A stretch of DNA of 32,000 nucleotides from an uncultured archaeon (GTDB lineage: Archaea; Iainarchaeota; Iainarchaeia; Iainarchaeales; Iainarchaeaceae): the NCBI GenBank assembly GCA_964577555.1, contig CAZNZM010000007.1, positions 25,586 to 57,585 of the forward strand, written 5' to 3'. Shown piece after piece: positions 12,907 to 29,830 of this stretch. Every line of letters starts with the position of its first letter. Positions within the stretch are counted from its first letter, which is position 1. The notes under the pieces are model-generated. The model saw only the letters and a list, made by a program, of their open reading frames with translations, made no database searches and was not told where the DNA came from. The translations under genes were made by a program, and so were the position numbers.

Positions 12907-14199
12907 ATGGAATCAAAGGATGATTACAATCTGCGGTTTACCCTGCAAAAGCTTGGCAATTCGCCAATGCTTGCCTGCAACAAAGAGAAGCTTTTGGAAT
13001 ACTATAACGAAAAAGTCGCCAACGGCATCAAAAAAACAAGTTATGCTTTTGTCTTGCGAATTTTAATAAAGCTCGGAGAGCACTTTCCTGACAAAAAGTT
13101 TGAGGATGTTTCAAAACAGGAAATGGTTTCCTTCATTAACGGCTTGAAGCCTGAAAAACATGTTTTGCCCCAAAAGCACGGCGGAGTAGTTGTTTTTGAA
13201 AAAGCTGCTTTCAGCGATAACACATTATGGCAACTCAAAGCAGCGATTAAAACATTTTACCGTTGGCTTTTTGGCGTTGGCTCTACAGACACTCCGCCGG
13301 AAGCAGTGAAATGGATTAGGAAGGAAGGCCATTCCAATGGAAAGCTTGAGGACAATTTCAAGAAAGAAATTTTGTCTATTAAAGAAGTTACTGAACTGAT
13401 TAACTGCGCCCACAATCCTCGGGATAAGGCAGTAATTGCGATTTTGTGGGAATCCGGCTTGAGGGCTTCTGAATTTTTGGGAATGAAAAAGAGCTGTTTG
13501 CAATGGCACAACCAGTATGTTGAATTTGAAGCATCCGGAAAGACTGGAAAACGGAATGTTATCCTCGTTCAATCAAAGCCTCATTTGGAAATTTGGCTTA
13601 ACGAGTTGGAGCGCAGGAAAAGCCAGTTAGCGCCTGGCCTGCAGGATTGCATTTGGATTGCTTTTAACAAGAAGGGCCTGAGAAACAACACGCTTGGCAA
13701 CAAGCTGCTTACAAGAGACAATTTGAACAACATGCTCAAAATCAATGCCAAAAGAGCAGGCATTCAAAAAAGAGTTTGGACTCATGGTTTGAGGCATTCT
13801 GCAGCTACTCGCGATGCTGCTAATGGCTGGAATGAAGCAAAGCTCCGCATCAAATACGGTTGGAGCAAAAAAAGCAATATGCCAAGCACTTATACTCACC
13901 TTGCAAACAGCGATTTGAAGGATACTATTTTGGAAGAGAATGGGATTATTGAGCACAAGCAAAACCAACAAAAATCCCTATTGGAAAATACTGTAAAGTG
14001 CTTGTTTTGCTTCACAGCCAACTTGCAGGAAAACGATTACTGCACCAAATGCGGCAGGCCATTAAAAGAAGAACAATTCAAGGCATTAGAGAAAAAAGCC
14101 GAAACAACAGAAGTACTGCAAAAAATGATACAACAAGAACTAGAAAGCAAGGGCATTGACATTGCACAAATAGCAAAAATTTTGACAATAAATGGCTGA
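12907..14199 (+). CDS. Tyrosine recombinase / phage-type integrase with C-terminal zinc ribbon
   Basis: Catalytic residues are in order: ESGLRASEF (Arg), HGLRHSAATRDA (HxxR) and PSTYTHL (Tyr). A C-terminal CLFC...CTKCG zinc ribbon is present. Confidence 0.85.
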   Translation: MESKDDYNLRFTLQKLGNSPMLACNKEKLLEYYNEKVANGIKKTSYAFVLRILIKLGEHFPDKKFEDVSKQEMVSFINGLKPEKHVLPQKHGGVVVFEKAAFSDNTLWQLKAAIKTFYRWLFGVGSTDTPPEAVKWIRKEGHSNGKLEDNFKKEILSIKEVTELINCAHNPRDKAVIAILWESGLRASEFLGMKKSCLQWHNQYVEFEASGKTGKRNVILVQSKPHLEIWLNELERRKSQLAPGLQDCIWIAFNKKGLRNNTLGNKLLTRDNLNNMLKINAKRAGIQKRVWTHGLRHSAATRDAANGWNEAKLRIKYGWSKKSNMPSTYTHLANSDLKDTILEENGIIEHKQNQQKSLLENTVKCLFCFTANLQENDYCTKCGRPLKEEQFKALEKKAETTEVLQKMIQQELESKGIDIAQIAKILTING

Positions 14200-23403: not shown

Positions 23404-23619
23404 TCATTTTATTTGCTTAAGTGCAAGTCTTATGTCTGCTCCGACAACGGTTTTTCTATTCGCGTGCTTTGCAAATTCTGTTGCTTGCTGGCTTATTTTA
23501 ATTCCTTCTTCTTCAAGGATTTCGGCAAGAGCAACAACTGCATCTTCGCTTACCCTTCCAGCACCGGCTTTGCGAATAATTCTGTCAACTGCAGCCAAAG
23601 GCAAAATTTGATCCCCCAT
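23404..23619 (-). CDS. Archaeal histone (HMf/CBF-NFY fold)
   Basis: [71 protein letters not shown] is a classic 71-aa histone fold. The track start at 23628 is GTG. ATG 23619 is preceded by AGGTGG. Confidence 0.9.
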
Positions 23620-23883
23620 TAAATCCACCTAAACACTAAAACAACCTAAATATTTAAAATCAGGACGCTTTTAAGAAAAAAAGCAATTAATAATATTTTT
23701 TTGGTCAAATTAAACGAAAAATAGTTTTATATGCAATTATTGTAATATAAAAGACTTCATAATTAAAATCATGCGTAAAATAATTGAATTATGCCGTGCA
23801 ATTGTTTTATTTTTTTGTTTTATTTCGCAGTGGCATTTATCTACACGTGCCATTTAAAAATAAGTTTTTTTAAAGTCTAATTT

Positions 23884-26157
23884 ATGGGTTTTGTTTCGCA
23901 TCCTTTGATAAAGCCTGAACAAATAGAATCTAAGCTTTATCAAGAAGTGCTTGCTGCTCGTGCGCTTGAAAAGGGCAACACTTTGATAGTTGCTCCGACT
24001 GCGCTTGGTAAGACAATAATTGCGATACTTGTTGCTGCAGAAATACTTAAAAGAGGGCAGAAAGTTTTGTTTCTTTCTCCCACAAAGCCTTTGGCTGTTC
24101 AACATGGCGCATCCATGAAAAAATTTCTGAATGTTGATGAAAATCAAATAATAGTTCTTACAGGAGCACTTGGCAGGGAGAAAAGAATTCAAGCTCTTGA
24201 AAATGCTTTGGTTGTTTCTGCCACGCCACAGGCAATTCAAAATGACATTGTTTTGGGCCAATTTCCAATACAAGACTTTGGCTTGATTATTTTTGACGAA
24301 TGCCATAAAGCAGTTGGAAATTATAGTTACGTTTTTATTGCAGAACAATACATGCGCAATTGCAAAAATCCTCTTATACTTGGCTTGACGGCATCGCCTG
24401 GAGCGGACGACGAAAAAATTCAAAGCATTTGCAGAAATCTTTTTATTAAAAATGTGGAAGTGAAAACACACAACGATGCAGATGTAAAGGATTATGTCAA
24501 CCCCATAAATGTAAAATGGGTTCGCGTTGATTTGCCTGAAAAATTTCTTGAAGCAAAAAAATTGTTGGAAAAATTCCAAAAAAACCAAACAGATTCCTTG
24601 AAAGAAATGGGTTTCGGTTTAGGCAAAAAATATTTTTCAAAAAAAGACATGTTAATGTTGCAAAGCCAGGTAAGGCGAGATATAATATCAAAAGGAAAAA
24701 CCATGCCTTCTTTGTACGGCGCAGCAATGAAAATAGCTTCTTTGATAAAAGCTTCCTATGCTTTGGAACTTCTTGAAACCCAAGGCATAGAAGCGCTGAA
24801 TGCATATTTTGACAAAATATATGGCGAAAGCAAAGGCTCGAAGCCTTTGAAATCAGTCAAGCAATTAGTGTCAGATCCAAACATAATAAAGGCAAGGGAA
24901 ATAGCAAAAGAACTTTTAGATAAAAAAATGGTTCATCCGAAAATAGAAGTGTTGAAAAAAATTATTTTGGAACAATTCAAAAAAAATCCGGAAAGCAAAA
25001 TAATAGTTTTCAACCATTATCGCGAAAACATAAGAGCGCTTGAAAACCACCTTGCTGAAATTGAAGTAATCAGGGCAAAAAGATTTGTAGGCCAAGCATC
25101 CAAAGGAGATGACAAAGGACTCACGCAAAAAGAACAATCCGAAATAATAAATGATTTGAAAAACGGAAAGTATAATTGTCTTCTTGCTTCAAGCGTTGCA
25201 GAAGAAGGACTTGACATTCCTGAAGTTGATTTGGTAGTATTTTACGAGCCAGTGCCTTCAGAAATAAGATACATACAAAGAAGAGGTCGTACAGGAAGAA
25301 AAAACGAGGGAAACGTCGTCATTTTAATGGCCCGAAACACAAGGGATGAAGCATTTTATTATTCAAGCAAATCAAAAGAAAGAAAAATGCAAGAAGCCTT
25401 AAAGCAATTGCAAAAGCCTGAAGCAATACCGGAAAAAATTGCCAACAACGATAAGCAAACAACTTTGTTGGGTTTTATTCAAAACGAAAAAAAAGTCGCT
25501 ATATTCATAGATACAAGGGAACAGGCTTCAAGCATTGTTTCTGAATTGCAAAAATTTGATGTTGAAATAAAAATAAAGCAATTAGATGTAGGAGACTTCA
25601 TATTAAGCAATGATGTAGTGGTTGAAAGAAAAACAATCGAGGATTTTTTGAGTTCGGTAATTGACGGAAGGCTTTTCAATCAACTCACCTTGATGTCTTC
25701 AACATATGCCGCTCCACTGATAATTTTGGAAGGCAAGCCGGAAGAACTCTATACAACCAGAAACATTCACGAAAATGCTGTTAGAGGAATTCTTGCCTCA
25801 ATTGCATTGAATTACAGAATCCCAATACTTTTCACAGCAGGAGTGGAAGAAACAGCAAAATTGCTTTTTATAATGGCTAAAAGAGAGCAACTTGGCACTG
25901 AGAAGGAAATAAGATTAAGATTTGGGCGGAAAGGCTTGACAATGCAAGAACAGCAACAATTCATATTGGAAGGTTTTCCAATGGTGGGCCCAAGCCTTGC
26001 AAAGTCGCTTCTCAAAAAATTTGGGACAATCAGGGCTATTGTTTGCGCTACTGTAAAGGAACTTCAAGAAGTTGAAAACATGGGGCCAATAAAAGCAAAA
26101 AAGATACATGAAATATTGAATGCATATTACAATCAAGAAAACAATAATGATTCATAA
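23884..26157 (+). CDS. hef: Hef: SF2 helicase fused to ERCC4/XPF nuclease and HhH2 (fork-structure endonuclease)
   Basis: APTALGKT (I), FDECHKA (II), LTASPG (III) and QRRGRTGR (VI). The ERCC4 core follows (IFIDTREQ...VVERKTIEDFLSSVIDGRL), then a C-terminal HhH (GFPMVGPSLAKSLLKKFG). Confidence 0.9.
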   Translation: MGFVSHPLIKPEQIESKLYQEVLAARALEKGNTLIVAPTALGKTIIAILVAAEILKRGQKVLFLSPTKPLAVQHGASMKKFLNVDENQIIVLTGALGREKRIQALENALVVSATPQAIQNDIVLGQFPIQDFGLIIFDECHKAVGNYSYVFIAEQYMRNCKNPLILGLTASPGADDEKIQSICRNLFIKNVEVKTHNDADVKDYVNPINVKWVRVDLPEKFLEAKKLLEKFQKNQTDSLKEMGFGLGKKYFSKKDMLMLQSQVRRDIISKGKTMPSLYGAAMKIASLIKASYALELLETQGIEALNAYFDKIYGESKGSKPLKSVKQLVSDPNIIKAREIAKELLDKKMVHPKIEVLKKIILEQFKKNPESKIIVFNHYRENIRALENHLAEIEVIRAKRFVGQASKGDDKGLTQKEQSEIINDLKNGKYNCLLASSVAEEGLDIPEVDLVVFYEPVPSEIRYIQRRGRTGRKNEGNVVILMARNTRDEAFYYSSKSKERKMQEALKQLQKPEAIPEKIANNDKQTTLLGFIQNEKKVAIFIDTREQASSIVSELQKFDVEIKIKQLDVGDFILSNDVVVERKTIEDFLSSVIDGRLFNQLTLMSSTYAAPLIILEGKPEELYTTRNIHENAVRGILASIALNYRIPILFTAGVEETAKLLFIMAKREQLGTEKEIRLRFGRKGLTMQEQQQFILEGFPMVGPSLAKSLLKKFGTIRAIVCATVKELQEVENMGPIKAKKIHEILNAYYNQENNNDS

Positions 26158-26204
26158 AAAAATTGAAATCTAAGACGCTTCAAAGGTTTTTCTCACTTTT
26201 GTTT

Positions 26205-26690
26205 TATCGGAATTTTTTACAATTAAATTTTTTTGGCTTTTCTAGCCAAGTTTTAGACTTTTTTTGAATTTGAATTTGTTTTTTTTGATTTATTTTATTT
26301 TTTTGTCTTTGTTGGCTTGTTTTTTTTGTTTGAATTTTTGTTTTTTTTATCGTGCTGTTTTTTGTTATTTTTCTTTTTTTGAATTCTTTTTTTTGCGAGC
26401 CAATTTTTTTGTTTGAATTTTTGTTTTTTTTGGCTTGTTTTTTTTAGTCATTTTTTTGTGAATTTGTTTTTTTTGATTTGCTTGGTTCTTTAATTTGAAA
26501 AATTATTTTTTTGCAAGCCATTTTTTGGGGCGATTTTTTTTAAGTTTTGATTTTTTTGGTGTTTGTTTTTTTGCAGTATTTTTTTTGAGTCGACTTTTTT
26601 TTTAATTTTGGGATTTTTGTAGAAATAAATTATTTTTTTGTTTTTTCTTTTTCTTTTTGGCTAAATAAATTTTCGTCTTTTTTTTATTCA
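26205..26690. repeat. Strand-asymmetric oligo-T array 1 (about 25 T6-T9 runs with short G-containing spacers)
   Basis: Direct reading. T runs are separated by the words GAATTTG, GC(G/A)AGCCA and GGCTTG. A 28-bp exact internal duplicate lies at 26321-26348 and 26404-26431. Confidence 0.85.
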
Positions 26691-26699
26691 GTTTCACTT

Positions 26700-27227
26700 T
26701 TATTTTTCCAATGTGACAAAAGCTGTTTTTTCCACTACAAGCATTTCAATGTTATTTTTAACATCTTTTACTGAGTTTAATTCGTCTTCTGAAATTTCGT
26801 AAATTTTCATTAGTTCGGCTTTGTTATTGCCCAATTTTTCCAAAATTTGTTTTTTTTCTTCAAAATCAAGCAACTTTATGATTTCATTTATTTTATTTTT
26901 GTTGTTTTCCTCGATCACAAGCAATAAATCTTCATTTCCAAAAACACTTTTGTCAATCGCTTTTGATATTTGTCTCTCACCAAGTACGCGAACAATAAAT
27001 TCAATATTAGGGTTTTGTGAAAATGCAACTCCTGAATCAATTGCAGCAATTGTCCTAGCTAGAGCGGTTTTTAAATGAAATTTTCCTGCTACAATTTTTG
27101 CCGGAATTATTTGGCAAAGATTGTTTTTTCCTAAAAGCGCAAGCTTTTTAATAGTCGCGTTATATGAATCATTAGATATTTTTCCGGAAAAAACCGTGAA
27201 AAATTTTTTTCCAATTGAAATTTTCAT
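26700..27227 (-). CDS. cgi121: KEOPS complex subunit Cgi121
   Basis: Collinear with archaeal Cgi121 as I recall it: ...AKIVAGKFHLKTALARTIAA..., IEFIVRVLGERQISKAIDK (the ..sGqRQI..Ai.. motif), and C-terminal IEMLVVEKTAFVTLEK. Confidence 0.7.
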   Translation of the reverse strand: MKISIGKKFFTVFSGKISNDSYNATIKKLALLGKNNLCQIIPAKIVAGKFHLKTALARTIAAIDSGVAFSQNPNIEFIVRVLGERQISKAIDKSVFGNEDLLLVIEENNKNKINEIIKLLDFEEKKQILEKLGNNKAELMKIYEISEDELNSVKDVKNNIEMLVVEKTAFVTLEK

Positions 27228-27771: not shown

Positions 27772-27952
27772 TAAATCTGCTTAAATTAGCTCTTTTTAAA
27801 CAATGTTTTTAACAGTAAAATTTATAAATGTTCGTAGGAGCATTTATATAAGTTCTCATGTTCTCTTTTTTTTGTAAAGCACATTCATTACCTAATTGGA
27901 ACAGGAACAGAATTATTTTTTGACATATTTGGAAAAGGACAGGAGTGATGGT

Positions 27953-28861
27953 ATGGTAGAAGTCAAATGTCCAGAGTGCAAAAGCACAAAAGTAAGAAGG
28001 GACGATGAAAAAGGTGAAATAGTTTGCCAAGATTGTGGCCTTATAATATCAGAAGATGAAGTCGATTTCGGCAAGGAGTGGAGAAGCTTTGATTCGGATC
28101 AAGCTGAAGAAAGGGCTAGAACAGGCTCTCCAATGAAATACGTCAAACTCAACAAAGGTTTAGTTACAATGATTGACAGGCGTGGCACTGATTTGAGGGG
28201 AAACAAACTTTCCACCAAGTCAAGGGCGCAAATGTACAGGTTAATAAAATGGCATAAAAGGGCATCAATAAGCTCTTCAATGCAGAGAAATCTTTCAATA
28301 GCACTTACAGAGTTGAGAAGAATTGCAAGTTATCTTAATACTCCTGAACAACTCGTTGAAGCAGCCGCATTGCTTTACAGAAAAACCGTAAAAAAAGGGT
28401 TGATAAGAGGCAGGTTAATAGAAGCAGTTGTTGCAGCAGTACTTTACACAGTTTGCAGAAACTACAACGTGCCAAGGACTTTGAATGAAATGGCTGAAGC
28501 ATCAGGCCTTACCAAAAAGGAAATTGGAAGAACGTACAGGTTTTTGGTTAGGGAACTTAAATTGGATATCCCGCTTACAAATCCTGTTCATTACATTCCA
28601 AGATTTGCTTCGGAACTTAACCTTTCAGGAGAAGTCCAAGAAGAAGGCAGAAAAATACTTGAAGAAGCCATTAAAAAAGGACTTATCTCAGGCAGGGGTC
28701 CAACAGGAGTTGCTGCTGCTGCAGTTTACATTGCAGGGCTTTTGAAAGGCGAAAGAAGGACACAAAAAGAAGTTGCAAATGTAGCAGGCGTTACCGAAGT
28801 TACTATAAGAAACAGGTATCGCGAACTGAAGAAAAAATTGGACATAGAAGTGGTGGCTTAA
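27953..28861 (+). CDS. tfb: Transcription initiation factor B (TFB/TFIIB)
   Basis: Zinc ribbon CPECKS...CQDCG, a B-finger/linker region and two cyclin-fold repeats (RGRLIEAVVAAVLYTVCR; RGPTGVAAAAVYIAG). The track start at 27896 is TTG. ATG 27953 is preceded by AGGAGTG. Confidence 0.9.
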   Translation: MVEVKCPECKSTKVRRDDEKGEIVCQDCGLIISEDEVDFGKEWRSFDSDQAEERARTGSPMKYVKLNKGLVTMIDRRGTDLRGNKLSTKSRAQMYRLIKWHKRASISSSMQRNLSIALTELRRIASYLNTPEQLVEAAALLYRKTVKKGLIRGRLIEAVVAAVLYTVCRNYNVPRTLNEMAEASGLTKKEIGRTYRFLVRELKLDIPLTNPVHYIPRFASELNLSGEVQEEGRKILEEAIKKGLISGRGPTGVAAAAVYIAGLLKGERRTQKEVANVAGVTEVTIRNRYRELKKKLDIEVVA

Positions 28862-28902: not shown

Positions 28903-29340
28903 TTTTTTTACTTTTTTTGTCTTTAAAAAATTTAACTTTTTTTTGGCGAGCCAGTTTGTTTTTTTTCTTTTTTTTGGTAAGCCAATTTTTTTTGGAATTT
29001 ATTTTTTTGATTTTTTTTATAACCATTTTTTTGTTTTTTAGGCCGGCAATTTTTTTACACCAGAGTCAGTTTTGTTTTTTTTGTGAGCCGTTTTTTTTGT
29101 TAATTAATTTTTTTTGCAAGCCAATTTTTTTTCAGTTATTTTTTGTGAATTTGTTTTTTTATTTCGTTTTAATTATTTTTTGTCTTGTTTGTTTTTTCCG
29201 AGCCTTTTTTTGGGATTTGTTTTTTTAAGCTAGCAAATTTTTTTTTACACCATGTTCTTGGCTGGTTTTTTTATTTTTTGCAAACTAAATTTTTCTGTCA
29301 ATTTGTTTTTTTCTAGCCAAAAATTTGTTTTTTGGGTAAT
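28903..29340. repeat. Strand-asymmetric oligo-T array 2 (about 26 T6-T9 runs), related to array 1
   Basis: Direct reading. It shares TTTTTTGTGAATTTGTTTTTTT (29139-29160 = 26452-26473) and TTTTTTTGCAAGCCA (29109-29123 = 26506-26520) with array 1. Confidence 0.85.
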
Positions 29341-29353
29341 AAGATTGATTAAT

Positions 29354-29830
29354 TCATGCTTTTGCACGCGGCTCGATTTTTTGCTTTTTTATCCTTATTT
29401 CAAGAACGTTGTTATTAAACTCCGTTTTTATCGAAGACTTGTCAACAGGACAAGGAAGTTTTATGTTTTTTGAGAATTTTTTGGAAGTTTTAGATGAAAC
29501 TATTATCTTGCTGTTCAATATTTTTACATTAATATCTCGTTTCGACAATCCGTTTAATTCCACTGCAGCCACAAGTTCTTCGCCAAAATCAATCATTTCA
29601 ACCAATGGCTGTTCTTTTTTGCTATCGGATAATTGTGAAGCGCTGATAATTCCAAATTCTTTTACATTGACATACCCTTCGCTGTCAAGTATGAGTGTAA
29701 AACCTATTTTGAAAGGCTTTGTAAAATCAACATTTGCAGTATCAAGATTTTCAACAATTTCCCCCAATATCATTTCAAGAGTTTCAAAGTCAATTGAAGA
29801 ATTATCGTCTTTTTTTTGCCAACGCGACAT
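29354..29830 (-). CDS. Hsp20/alpha-crystallin-domain-like small heat shock protein
   Basis: The C-terminal half reads LVAAVELNGLSKRDINVKILNSKIIVSS...NIKLPCPVDKSSIKTEFNNNVLEIRIKK. This follows the ACD pattern (aelPGv.kedi.v.v....L.I......i.LP..vd...i.a.y.nGvLei.i.K). Confidence 0.55.
   Translation of the reverse strand: MSRWQKKDDNSSIDFETLEMILGEIVENLDTANVDFTKPFKIGFTLILDSEGYVNVKEFGIISASQLSDSKKEQPLVEMIDFGEELVAAVELNGLSKRDINVKILNSKIIVSSKTSKKFSKNIKLPCPVDKSSIKTEFNNNVLEIRIKKQKIEPRAKA

Follow-up and report, generated by a model that had tools for sequence, protein, structure and literature searches.

An oligo-T array between the convergent genes hef and cgi121 of an uncultured Iainarchaeales archaeon, and the polar intergenic repeat family to which it belongs

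The gap between hef and cgi121

The window is the whole stretch of DNA analyzed here, 32,000 nucleotides long (C7:25586-57585), and positions are those of the window unless a contig (C1 to C15) is named. The genes hef and cgi121 converge on a gap that is filled almost completely by an array of T runs, referred to here as array 1 (Table 1). The two stop positions, 26157 and 26700, and the convergent arrangement had been given in a preliminary description made from the sequence alone, and were checked by the domain matches of the flanking genes. A second array of the same family and polarity occupies another convergent gap of the window, between tfb and hsp20.

Table 1. Features of the hef/cgi121 locus and of other loci discussed in the text. 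Positions are those of the window unless a contig is named.
Feature	Position	Strand	Basis and remarks
Histone gene	23404-23628	-	domain match; 256 bp upstream of hef
hef (DEAD/Helicase_C, ERCC4, HhH)	23884-26157	+	domain matches; transcripts run into T runs
T7 overlapping the hef stop codon	26156-26162	-	about 535 nt beyond the cgi121 stop; only T6+ run in the cgi121 sense
First T5 past the hef stop	26188-26192	+	sequence; 31 nt downstream of the stop; likely the first hef termination signal
Oligo-T array 1	26205-26690	+	25 T6-T9 runs; short, mostly G-initial spacer words; period about 16 bp
Perfect small hairpin TTGGCT-TTTCT-AGCCAA	26233-26250	+	hef-proximal array edge; sole stable local stem in the fold
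28-nt exact duplicate TTTTTTTGTTTGAATTTTTGTTTTTTTT, copy 1	26321-26348	+	sequence identity
GCGAGCCA, family signature word (GYRAGCC)	26395-26402	+	sequence
28-nt exact duplicate TTTTTTTGTTTGAATTTTTGTTTTTTTT, copy 2	26404-26431	+	sequence identity
T5 inside array 1	26498-26502	-	sequence
GCAAGCCA, second GYRAGCC-type word of array 1	26513-26520	+	sequence
cgi121 (KEOPS subunit, PF08617)	26700-27227	-	domain match; transcripts would read array 1 as A runs
tfb	27896-28861	+	left flank of array 2
Oligo-T array 2	28903-29390	+	same family and polarity as array 1; convergent gap tfb/hsp20
hsp20	29354-29830	-	right flank of array 2
cdc6 gene 1	C1:60159-61301		outside the window; array polarity unflipped there
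XerA-like tyrosine recombinase gene	C1:147988-148866		best match of the genome, 162.8 bits; bracketed by the polarity flip on C1
cdc6 gene 2	C4:16046-17158		outside the window; array polarity unflipped there

The run starts of array 1 lie between 26213 and 26678. Their number had been put at about 25 in the preliminary description, and exactly 25 were counted; no run of six or more A was found on the plus strand, as had been stated, and the spacing of run starts (8-39 bp, mostly 13-22) was reproduced. The recurrent words were also located where they had been reported, with GAATTTG at 26266, 26272 and 26460, GGCTTG at 26314 and 26432, and one copy each of GCGAGCCA and GCAAGCCA. The exact 28-nt repetition described there was likewise recovered; its two copies are offset by 83 bp and are the mark of a local duplication within the array. 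The base content is 63.6% T, 15.4% A, 14.2% G and 6.8% C. The remark that C is almost confined to AGCC and GGCT words was overstated, since only about 12 of the 33 C residues lie in them.

Strict helical phasing had been denied, correctly: a 10.5-bp signal is absent and the spectral peak, which gives the dominant period, is at 16 bp. TRF returned periods of 14-49 with matches of 62-85% on the array, and the head-to-tail units and local duplications are those of a minisatellite or VNTR-like tandem repeat. The run lengths are not those of random T-rich DNA. Exact T7-8 runs number 20; mononucleotide shuffles have 4.3 ± 1.9 and first-order Markov simulations 6.0 ± 2.3, and the observed number was reached in 0 of 2000 simulations. 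The longest T run is 9 nt, against about 18 nt predicted by the Markov simulations.

The region is non-coding, as had been proposed. Its reading frames give only Phe- or Lys-rich junk, a permissive Rfam search (E ≤ 1) returned 0 matches, and the RNA fold of array 1 is no better than that of shuffled sequences on either strand (z = -0.15 and +0.11). A scan for promoters and terminators of the bacterial type found nothing exceeding shuffles. A run of five or more T on the non-template strand soon after the stop codon, as in an archaeal oligo-T terminator, is present for hef, with a T5 at 31 nt, a T6 at 56 nt and 24 more runs beyond. None is found within 150 nt of the cgi121 stop. The earlier view that cgi121 has no oligo-T terminator of its own thus holds for the vicinity of the gene; farther on, two minus-strand runs do exist, the T5 inside the array and the T7 at the hef stop codon.

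A family of arrays copied between intergenic gaps

The assembly comprises 979 kb in 15 contigs and is 95.5% complete. Arrays were defined as at least 8 T6+ (or A6+) runs separated by at most 45 bp, and the gene calls used for the gap analyses were crude longest-ORF calls. So defined, 127 arrays are present on 12 of the 15 contigs, covering 45.9 kb or 4.7% of the DNA. They occupy about 125 of 860 intergenic gaps (~15%), with every orientation of the flanking genes, so that a device of this kind is not peculiar to the hef/cgi121 gap. T runs of 6, 7, 8, 9 and 10 nt occur 430, 804, 969, 329 and 49 times in the family, a bimodal distribution with a peak at 7-8, unlike the steady geometric decay predicted by an iid model of run length. 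G follows 67% of the T runs. The commonest long word, GYRAGCC, is found 217 times on the T strand and 7 times on the opposite strand.

Arrays at different loci have long exact blocks in common. There are 814 exact 40-mers common to arrays, distributed among 54 of them, compared with 13-24 in unit-shuffled controls. Of the array pairs with common 30-mers, 43 are within one contig (21 ± 4.7 expected), and 72% of the sharing of array sequence is between contigs. Array 1 has a 37-nt block of two units in common with the array at C10:19380-20262, and is 75-82% identical to many other arrays over 150-230 bp. Exact blocks of several units at separate loci imply copying among the arrays, not a separate origin of each from composition. 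The T-run block downstream of hef is a member of an oriented, copied, non-coding repeat family, and array 1 grew by local duplication from units common to other loci. According to the preliminary description, similar T-run density in most gaps, whatever their orientation, would mark the array as a composition effect. The outcome is mixed: similar arrays do occur in gaps of all flank orientations, as noted above, but the oriented words, the shared blocks and the unbiased codons of the flanking genes speak against composition.

The family appears to be restricted to its lineage and to turn over fast, judging from the relatives. Matches to a three-run pattern drawn from the family number 478 here; two genomes of the same genus have 28 and 6, and a further 28 relatives have 0-9 each. 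A sister species retains the synteny of S8e, cgi121 and hef, its Hef being 68% identical; 3' of its hef gene lie about 250 bp of unrelated sequence rich in A runs, that is, of opposite polarity, followed by an extra small ORF. At one locus of genome G001 an array similar in style but of a different vocabulary is present, and the adjoining gene is without skew. The signature unit TTTTTTTGYGAGCCRTTTTTTT gave 0 matches in IMG/VR and 16 single matches in JGI metagenome contigs, none of them within an array; entries near to the present genome may have been kept out of both scans. A Cgi121 query for the same locus had no match in the JGI metagenomes, and a Hef query of GTDB genome contigs returned two distant matches only. 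No description of such arrays was found in the literature; the whole-genome census of the arrays and the evidence for copying between loci are new here.

REP/BIME elements, the STRR repeats of cyanobacteria and the heptamer arrays of Xanthomonas and Nostoc are families of dispersed intergenic repeats in bacteria. The present arrays resemble them in being non-coding, in filling many gaps, in their fast turnover and restriction to a lineage, and in breaking assemblies. They differ from REP/BIME elements in their non-palindromic units, with a fold z of about 0, and in that no Y1/RAYT-type transposase was found. The palindromic or hairpin-forming units or terminal inverted repeats typical of REP/BIME/MITE-like elements are absent, as seen from the fold values of array 1 and from the 217:7 strand bias of GYRAGCC, and the array units form no hairpin. 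Searches for the Y1 transposase (PF01797) and TnpB (PF07282) had no match in the 95.5%-complete assembly, and an origin of the IS200/RAYT type was rejected because neither was found. The heptamer arrays have a strict period of 7, whereas the period here is loose (13-17 bp). From all three bacterial families the arrays differ in that their polarity follows the chromosome region and not the nearest gene.

The arrays and neighboring transcription

The genome was divided into two compositional halves. The skewed half (481 kb) consists of C1 beyond 149.5 kb, C2, C3, C4 and C9, and the low-skew half (498 kb) of C1 0-149 kb, C5-C8 and C10-C15; the latter contains the window. A chimeric bin of two organisms was rejected as the source of the two halves, only 42 of 421 proteins of one half having a match in the other, one with more than 50% identity.

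Termination at oligo-T or U tracts is documented in archaea, both as an intrinsic process and with the assistance of aCPSF1/FttA (reviewed in PMC13675443; for a map of 3' ends in Haloferax see PMC7237163). The present genome encodes an aCPSF1/FttA orthologue and uses such terminators generally: in 65% of ordinary genes (gap of at least 40 nt) a T5+ run follows within 150 nt of the stop, the median distance being 7.5 nt. The arrays are like these terminators in placing T5-T8 runs on the non-template strand right past a stop codon. They differ from them in several respects. Array 1 has 25 runs in 486 bp when one or a few would be enough, an excess already pointed out in the preliminary description. 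The arrays also face the wrong way for an adjoining gene, 86 gene 3' ends being turned toward the A-run side. Their polarity is regional and not gene-relative, so that orientation does not follow a gene served; they carry an oriented GC word, and they are copied between loci.

Genes abutting the A-run side of an array (n = 66) have a T5+ run of their own within 150 nt in only 17% of cases, and cgi121 is among those without. From array to gene 3' end, the median distance is 19 bp for the T-run side and -2 bp for the A-run side, the TAA stop there being fused with the run. Gene 5' ends are farther away, at 71-93 bp.

The skewed half provides a clean test of an effect on transcription, since its genes run in both orientations, at close to 50:50, under a fixed array polarity. 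Among its co-directional gaps, arrays are present in 7.9% of those where the T runs would lie on the mRNA (T-sense) and in 20.9% of those where the A runs would do so (A-sense; Fisher p = 0.003), so that T-sense arrays are 2.6-fold rarer between co-directional genes. Array occupancy in the same half is 28.7% for convergent and 15.4% for divergent gaps. Most simply, T-sense arrays would stop transcription and be counter-selected between co-transcribed genes, whereas A-sense arrays would be harmless. This asymmetry of placement between ++ and -- gaps is another new observation.

A placement for termination is not apparent. The probability of an array is 17% where a flanking gene ends into its T runs and 19% where a gene of the opposite strand starts; with no enrichment behind genes that the T runs would stop, a selected terminator function is unsupported. 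The barrier against head-on transcription that had been suggested for array 1 is retained only as a one-way effect, to which the avoidance of T-sense arrays between co-directional genes points. In the low-skew half, the mRNA strand carries the A runs in 73% of the co-directional gene pairs (n = 266) and likewise in the gene of r-protein L2, and T-sense transcription is consequently the minority direction in that half. Seeding of the arrays from local terminators was rejected, as the own terminators of the low-skew genes are mostly opposite to the T-run strand of the arrays. It follows that the arrays are not expanded local terminators, nor do they seem placed for termination.

The reading preferred here, with a probability of roughly 0.6, is that of a lineage-specific polar satellite that would stop transcription one way, ending hef transcripts and letting those of cgi121 pass. 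Its unit is a T7-8 run plus a short, usually G-initial word, often GYRAGCC, recurring about every 16 bp. The family spreads among intergenic gaps by DNA copying and expands locally by duplication, taking up free space at gene 3' ends and sparing promoters. Because each unit has the canonical archaeal oligo-T signal on one strand only, an array would act as a one-way stop. Transcripts of hef, read from the plus strand, would end within the first tens of nucleotides, early in the array. Those of cgi121, from the minus strand, would encounter A runs, a single T5 some 200 nt on, and no longer T run before the T7 at the hef stop codon, and would probably pass the array as A-rich RNA; the T7 may be a last stop for read-through from cgi121 before it enters hef in antisense. 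That the T runs actually terminate transcription is inferred from the sequence. The family would be mainly self-propagating DNA, and the one-way stop a tolerated or mildly useful side effect. Among the three roles proposed in the preliminary description, a degenerate satellite with an AGCC word is nearest to the data. Uniform polarity over 150-kb regions is not accounted for by a purely selfish or neutral satellite alone.

Regional polarity and alternative readings

In the intergenic DNA of the low-skew half, the ratio of T7+ to A7+ runs is 32:314 for C1 0-148 kb, 145:13 for C5, 162:12 for C6, 93:19 for C7, 116:19 for C8 and 162:8 for C10. Two isolated arrays, on C7 and C12, oppose the majority of their contig. 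The strand component of the third-codon AT (AT3) skew in this half is only -0.06 to +0.05, and the third codon positions of the genes that flank array 1 have no strand bias (hef, A3 0.41 and T3 0.28; cgi121, A3 0.44 and T3 0.33). The composition of the arrays themselves is equal in the two halves, with a T content of 0.641 in the low-skew and 0.664 in the skewed half. Among arrays in convergent and divergent gaps, 22 of 25 follow the regional polarity, which is telling because neighboring transcription cannot pick the strand in such gaps. Polarity almost as strict as in the skewed half, in the absence of AT3 skew, means that direction belongs to the repeat family and the chromosome region and is not a passive readout of composition. 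The regional polarity is independent of the neighboring genes and, in the low-skew half, also of base-composition bias. Its persistence without compositional skew is new here, as is its flip at a XerA-like gene. This flip is the sole one of the family within a contig: on C1 an A-type array ends at 147,957 and a T-type array starts at 150,274, bracketing the gene of the genome's best XerA-like recombinase, and the same point coincides with the onset of strong skew.

A selected polar signal tied to the replichores, consisting either of one-way terminators against head-on transcription or of KOPS/ASPS-like pointers toward dif, survives best among the alternatives, and is considered rather unlikely. 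In Sulfolobales, dif lies close to xerA and polar words switch their orientation at dif (Cortez et al. 2010, PMC2958812). Given this proximity, the position of the C1 flip at a XerA-like gene fits a replichore boundary. A search for a dif-like inverted repeat near the gene found only AT-rich palindromes. The arrays may be likened to the bacterial KOPS and the archaeal ASPS (PMC2958812), which have one orientation per chromosome arm, for their uniform polarity per contig and for the single within-contig flip around a XerA-like gene, the C7 and C12 arrays being isolated exceptions; polarity is uniform across 50-150 kb whatever the flanking genes. T-sense being the minority direction of transcription in the low-skew half also favors such a signal. 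KOPS and ASPS are, however, short words scattered everywhere, genes included, and here the polarity resides in clustered intergenic arrays. No arm-wide skew of the word was found: outside arrays, intergenic GYRAGCC is co-oriented in 11 cases and anti-oriented in 18, and its genic copies follow gene orientation with no excess. Neither of the two cdc6 genes is at a polarity flip. A reading of array 1 as a replication origin was rejected, since the cdc6 genes lie elsewhere and no flip is present at either, and some 127 array copies cannot all be origins. If the C1 flip were a terminus, the G+T-rich strand would be lagging and the 16S gene (C9, plus strand) head-on; if it were an origin, most genes of the low-skew half would be head-on. 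Either way, one of the customary rules on gene orientation or G+T skew is broken. Arrays are also no commoner behind T-sense genes, and close relatives manage without them.

A related proposal, judged unlikely, is that the arrays constitute a chromosome-direction code read by RNA polymerase, which would pass one way and stop the other, with inversion of the code at the XerA/dif region. If this were true, a tiny archaeon would have a built-in suppression of transcription head-on to replication, and base skew would record the direction of replication far less sensitively than the polarity does.

Passive composition would have one strand mutating to T everywhere, synonymous sites included, with slippage-prone T-rich filler accumulating on it and no need for an orientation signal. 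The skewed half agrees with it: the T-run strand is the G+T-rich strand in 80 of 80 arrays, the strand component of AT3 is 0.23-0.69 whichever way the genes are oriented, with a gradient along the DNA, and array density is about twice that of the low-skew half. Even in the low-skew half, the non-array intergenic DNA has an AT skew of -0.095 in the orientation of the arrays, from which an 8-mer bias of about 4.6-fold follows by arithmetic. The window, however, is in the low-skew half, where hef and cgi121 are unbiased and polarity is still about 10:1. Composition of this kind cannot yield the peak of run lengths at 7-8, the 217:7 bias of GYRAGCC or shared exact blocks of at least 40 nt. It is contradicted at the array 1 locus and is distinctly unlikely as an explanation of the family. 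A chromosome-wide strand disparity in G/C, with no disparity in A/T, is known from Ca. Chazhemtobacterium aquaticus Ch65 (PMC7143001). Half of the present genome, with its T runs on the G+T-rich strand and a skew that is graded and independent of gene orientation, is like Ch65 and like the heavy/light-strand gradient of mitochondria. Unlike what is described for Ch65, for which no repeat arrays are reported (PMC7143001), array 1 is an array in a skew-free half.

A role in chromatin or DNA structure, by which rigid poly(dA:dT) would keep archaeal histones off and leave gene ends or boundaries accessible, is very improbable. Long A/T homopolymers in a histone-bearing organism are indeed present, namely 25 T6-9 tracts, one histone gene next to hef (Table 1) and a further one on C3. 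The T7-8 tracts recur with a period of 16 bp, or about 1.5 helical turns. At such a distance the bends of successive A-tracts would cancel and the DNA would be straight and stiff. Exclusion of histones is, however, blind to strand and leaves the regional polarity, the oriented words and the ++/-- asymmetry unexplained. An assembly artefact, in which low-complexity reads were collapsed or mis-joined into an array, is barely credible for array 1. Arrays do contain 12 of the 30 contig ends and 7 of the 11 scaffold gaps, and about 270 bases are identical between C7:17-459 and C1:76506-77417. Array 1, however, is contig-internal and N-free, has intact syntenic genes on both sides, and has units in an order found nowhere else, with a longest exact match to another array of 37 nt; 127 arrays of coherent grammar are present along with arrays in independent assemblies of the same genus. 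Because of the contig ends and N gaps within arrays, errors in the length of arrays and at some joins are possible.

For the organism, the array family, even if only a satellite, amounts to about 5% of a streamlined 1-Mb genome. It leaves no fewer than 55 genes, or 83% of the 66 scored, without a conventional terminator, and it breaks short-read assemblies of the lineage. If the polarity is set by replication or segregation, the chromosome arms of an uncultured DPANN archaeon could be read from the arrays, which would also be a natural case of orientation-dependent insulation of transcription.

Strand skew in the two halves of the assembly

The 979-kb, 15-contig assembly falls by third-codon strand skew into two nearly equal parts. 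The 481-kb half (contig C1 past 149.5 kb, C2, C3, C4 and C9) has an extreme skew that is independent of gene orientation, while in the 498-kb half (other contigs, including that of the window) the skew is nearly absent. The proposal that the halves are two organisms binned together was rejected. The skew looks graded along the DNA. The AT3 strand component (the part of third-codon AT skew independent of gene orientation) is approximately 0.69 beside the junction on C1, 0.62 on C4 and 0.23 on C9. Along C2 it declines from 0.57 to 0.46, along C3 from 0.46 to 0.25, and along C11 from 0.32 to about 0. The sense of the decay relative to the strand bearing the T runs of the arrays is constant throughout.

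The switch region and possible recombination features

Array polarity and the onset of strong skew both change inside approximately 2.3 kb of C1, and this region is a candidate dif/terminus region or origin region. No dif-like site was recognised within it. The 23-kb high-skew end of C1 is flanked by two arrays sharing 114 overlapping exact 40-mers (~150 nt identical) in inverted relative orientation, and recombination between them could invert the segment. The only Phage_integrase domain match in the assembly besides the XerA-like recombinase is a 430-aa ORF of the window, which may mark an integrated element; the 32-kb window contains no tRNA gene.

Coordinates of the features described
Feature	Location	Strand	Remarks
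Switch region	C1:147300-150500 (L035:4300-7500)		in the ~2.3 kb of the switch: XerA-like tyrosine recombinase, 420-bp spacer without array, PRC-barrel gene
Inverted array pair	C1:147318-147957; C1:170918-171274		
Near-end array	C7:17-459		start of the window's contig
Internal array	C1:76506-77417		
Array 2	window 28903-29390	+	convergent gap tfb/hsp20; polarity and family as array 1
Phage_integrase ORF	window 12907-14199	+	domain match C7:38957-39493, 70 bits
Archaeal histone gene	window 23404-23628	-	74 aa, PF00808; 256 bp upstream of hef

Arrays, assembly breaks and gene 3' ends

Arrays contain 12 of the 30 contig ends and 7 of the 11 N gaps of the assembly. The near-end array of the window's contig and the internal C1 array have ~270 identical bases in common, reflecting either a very recent copy or assembly ambiguity. 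The hsp20 ORF is Lys-rich at its 3' end, and the final T runs of array 2 extend into that part. Across the genome, 86 genes have a 3' end that faces the A-run side of an array (the end at which an incoming gene reads A runs), and in 46 of these the array starts at most 5 bp from the stop codon, so that TAA merges directly with the A run. Many mRNAs would therefore, as predicted from the sequence, carry an A-rich 3' extension encoded in the genome.
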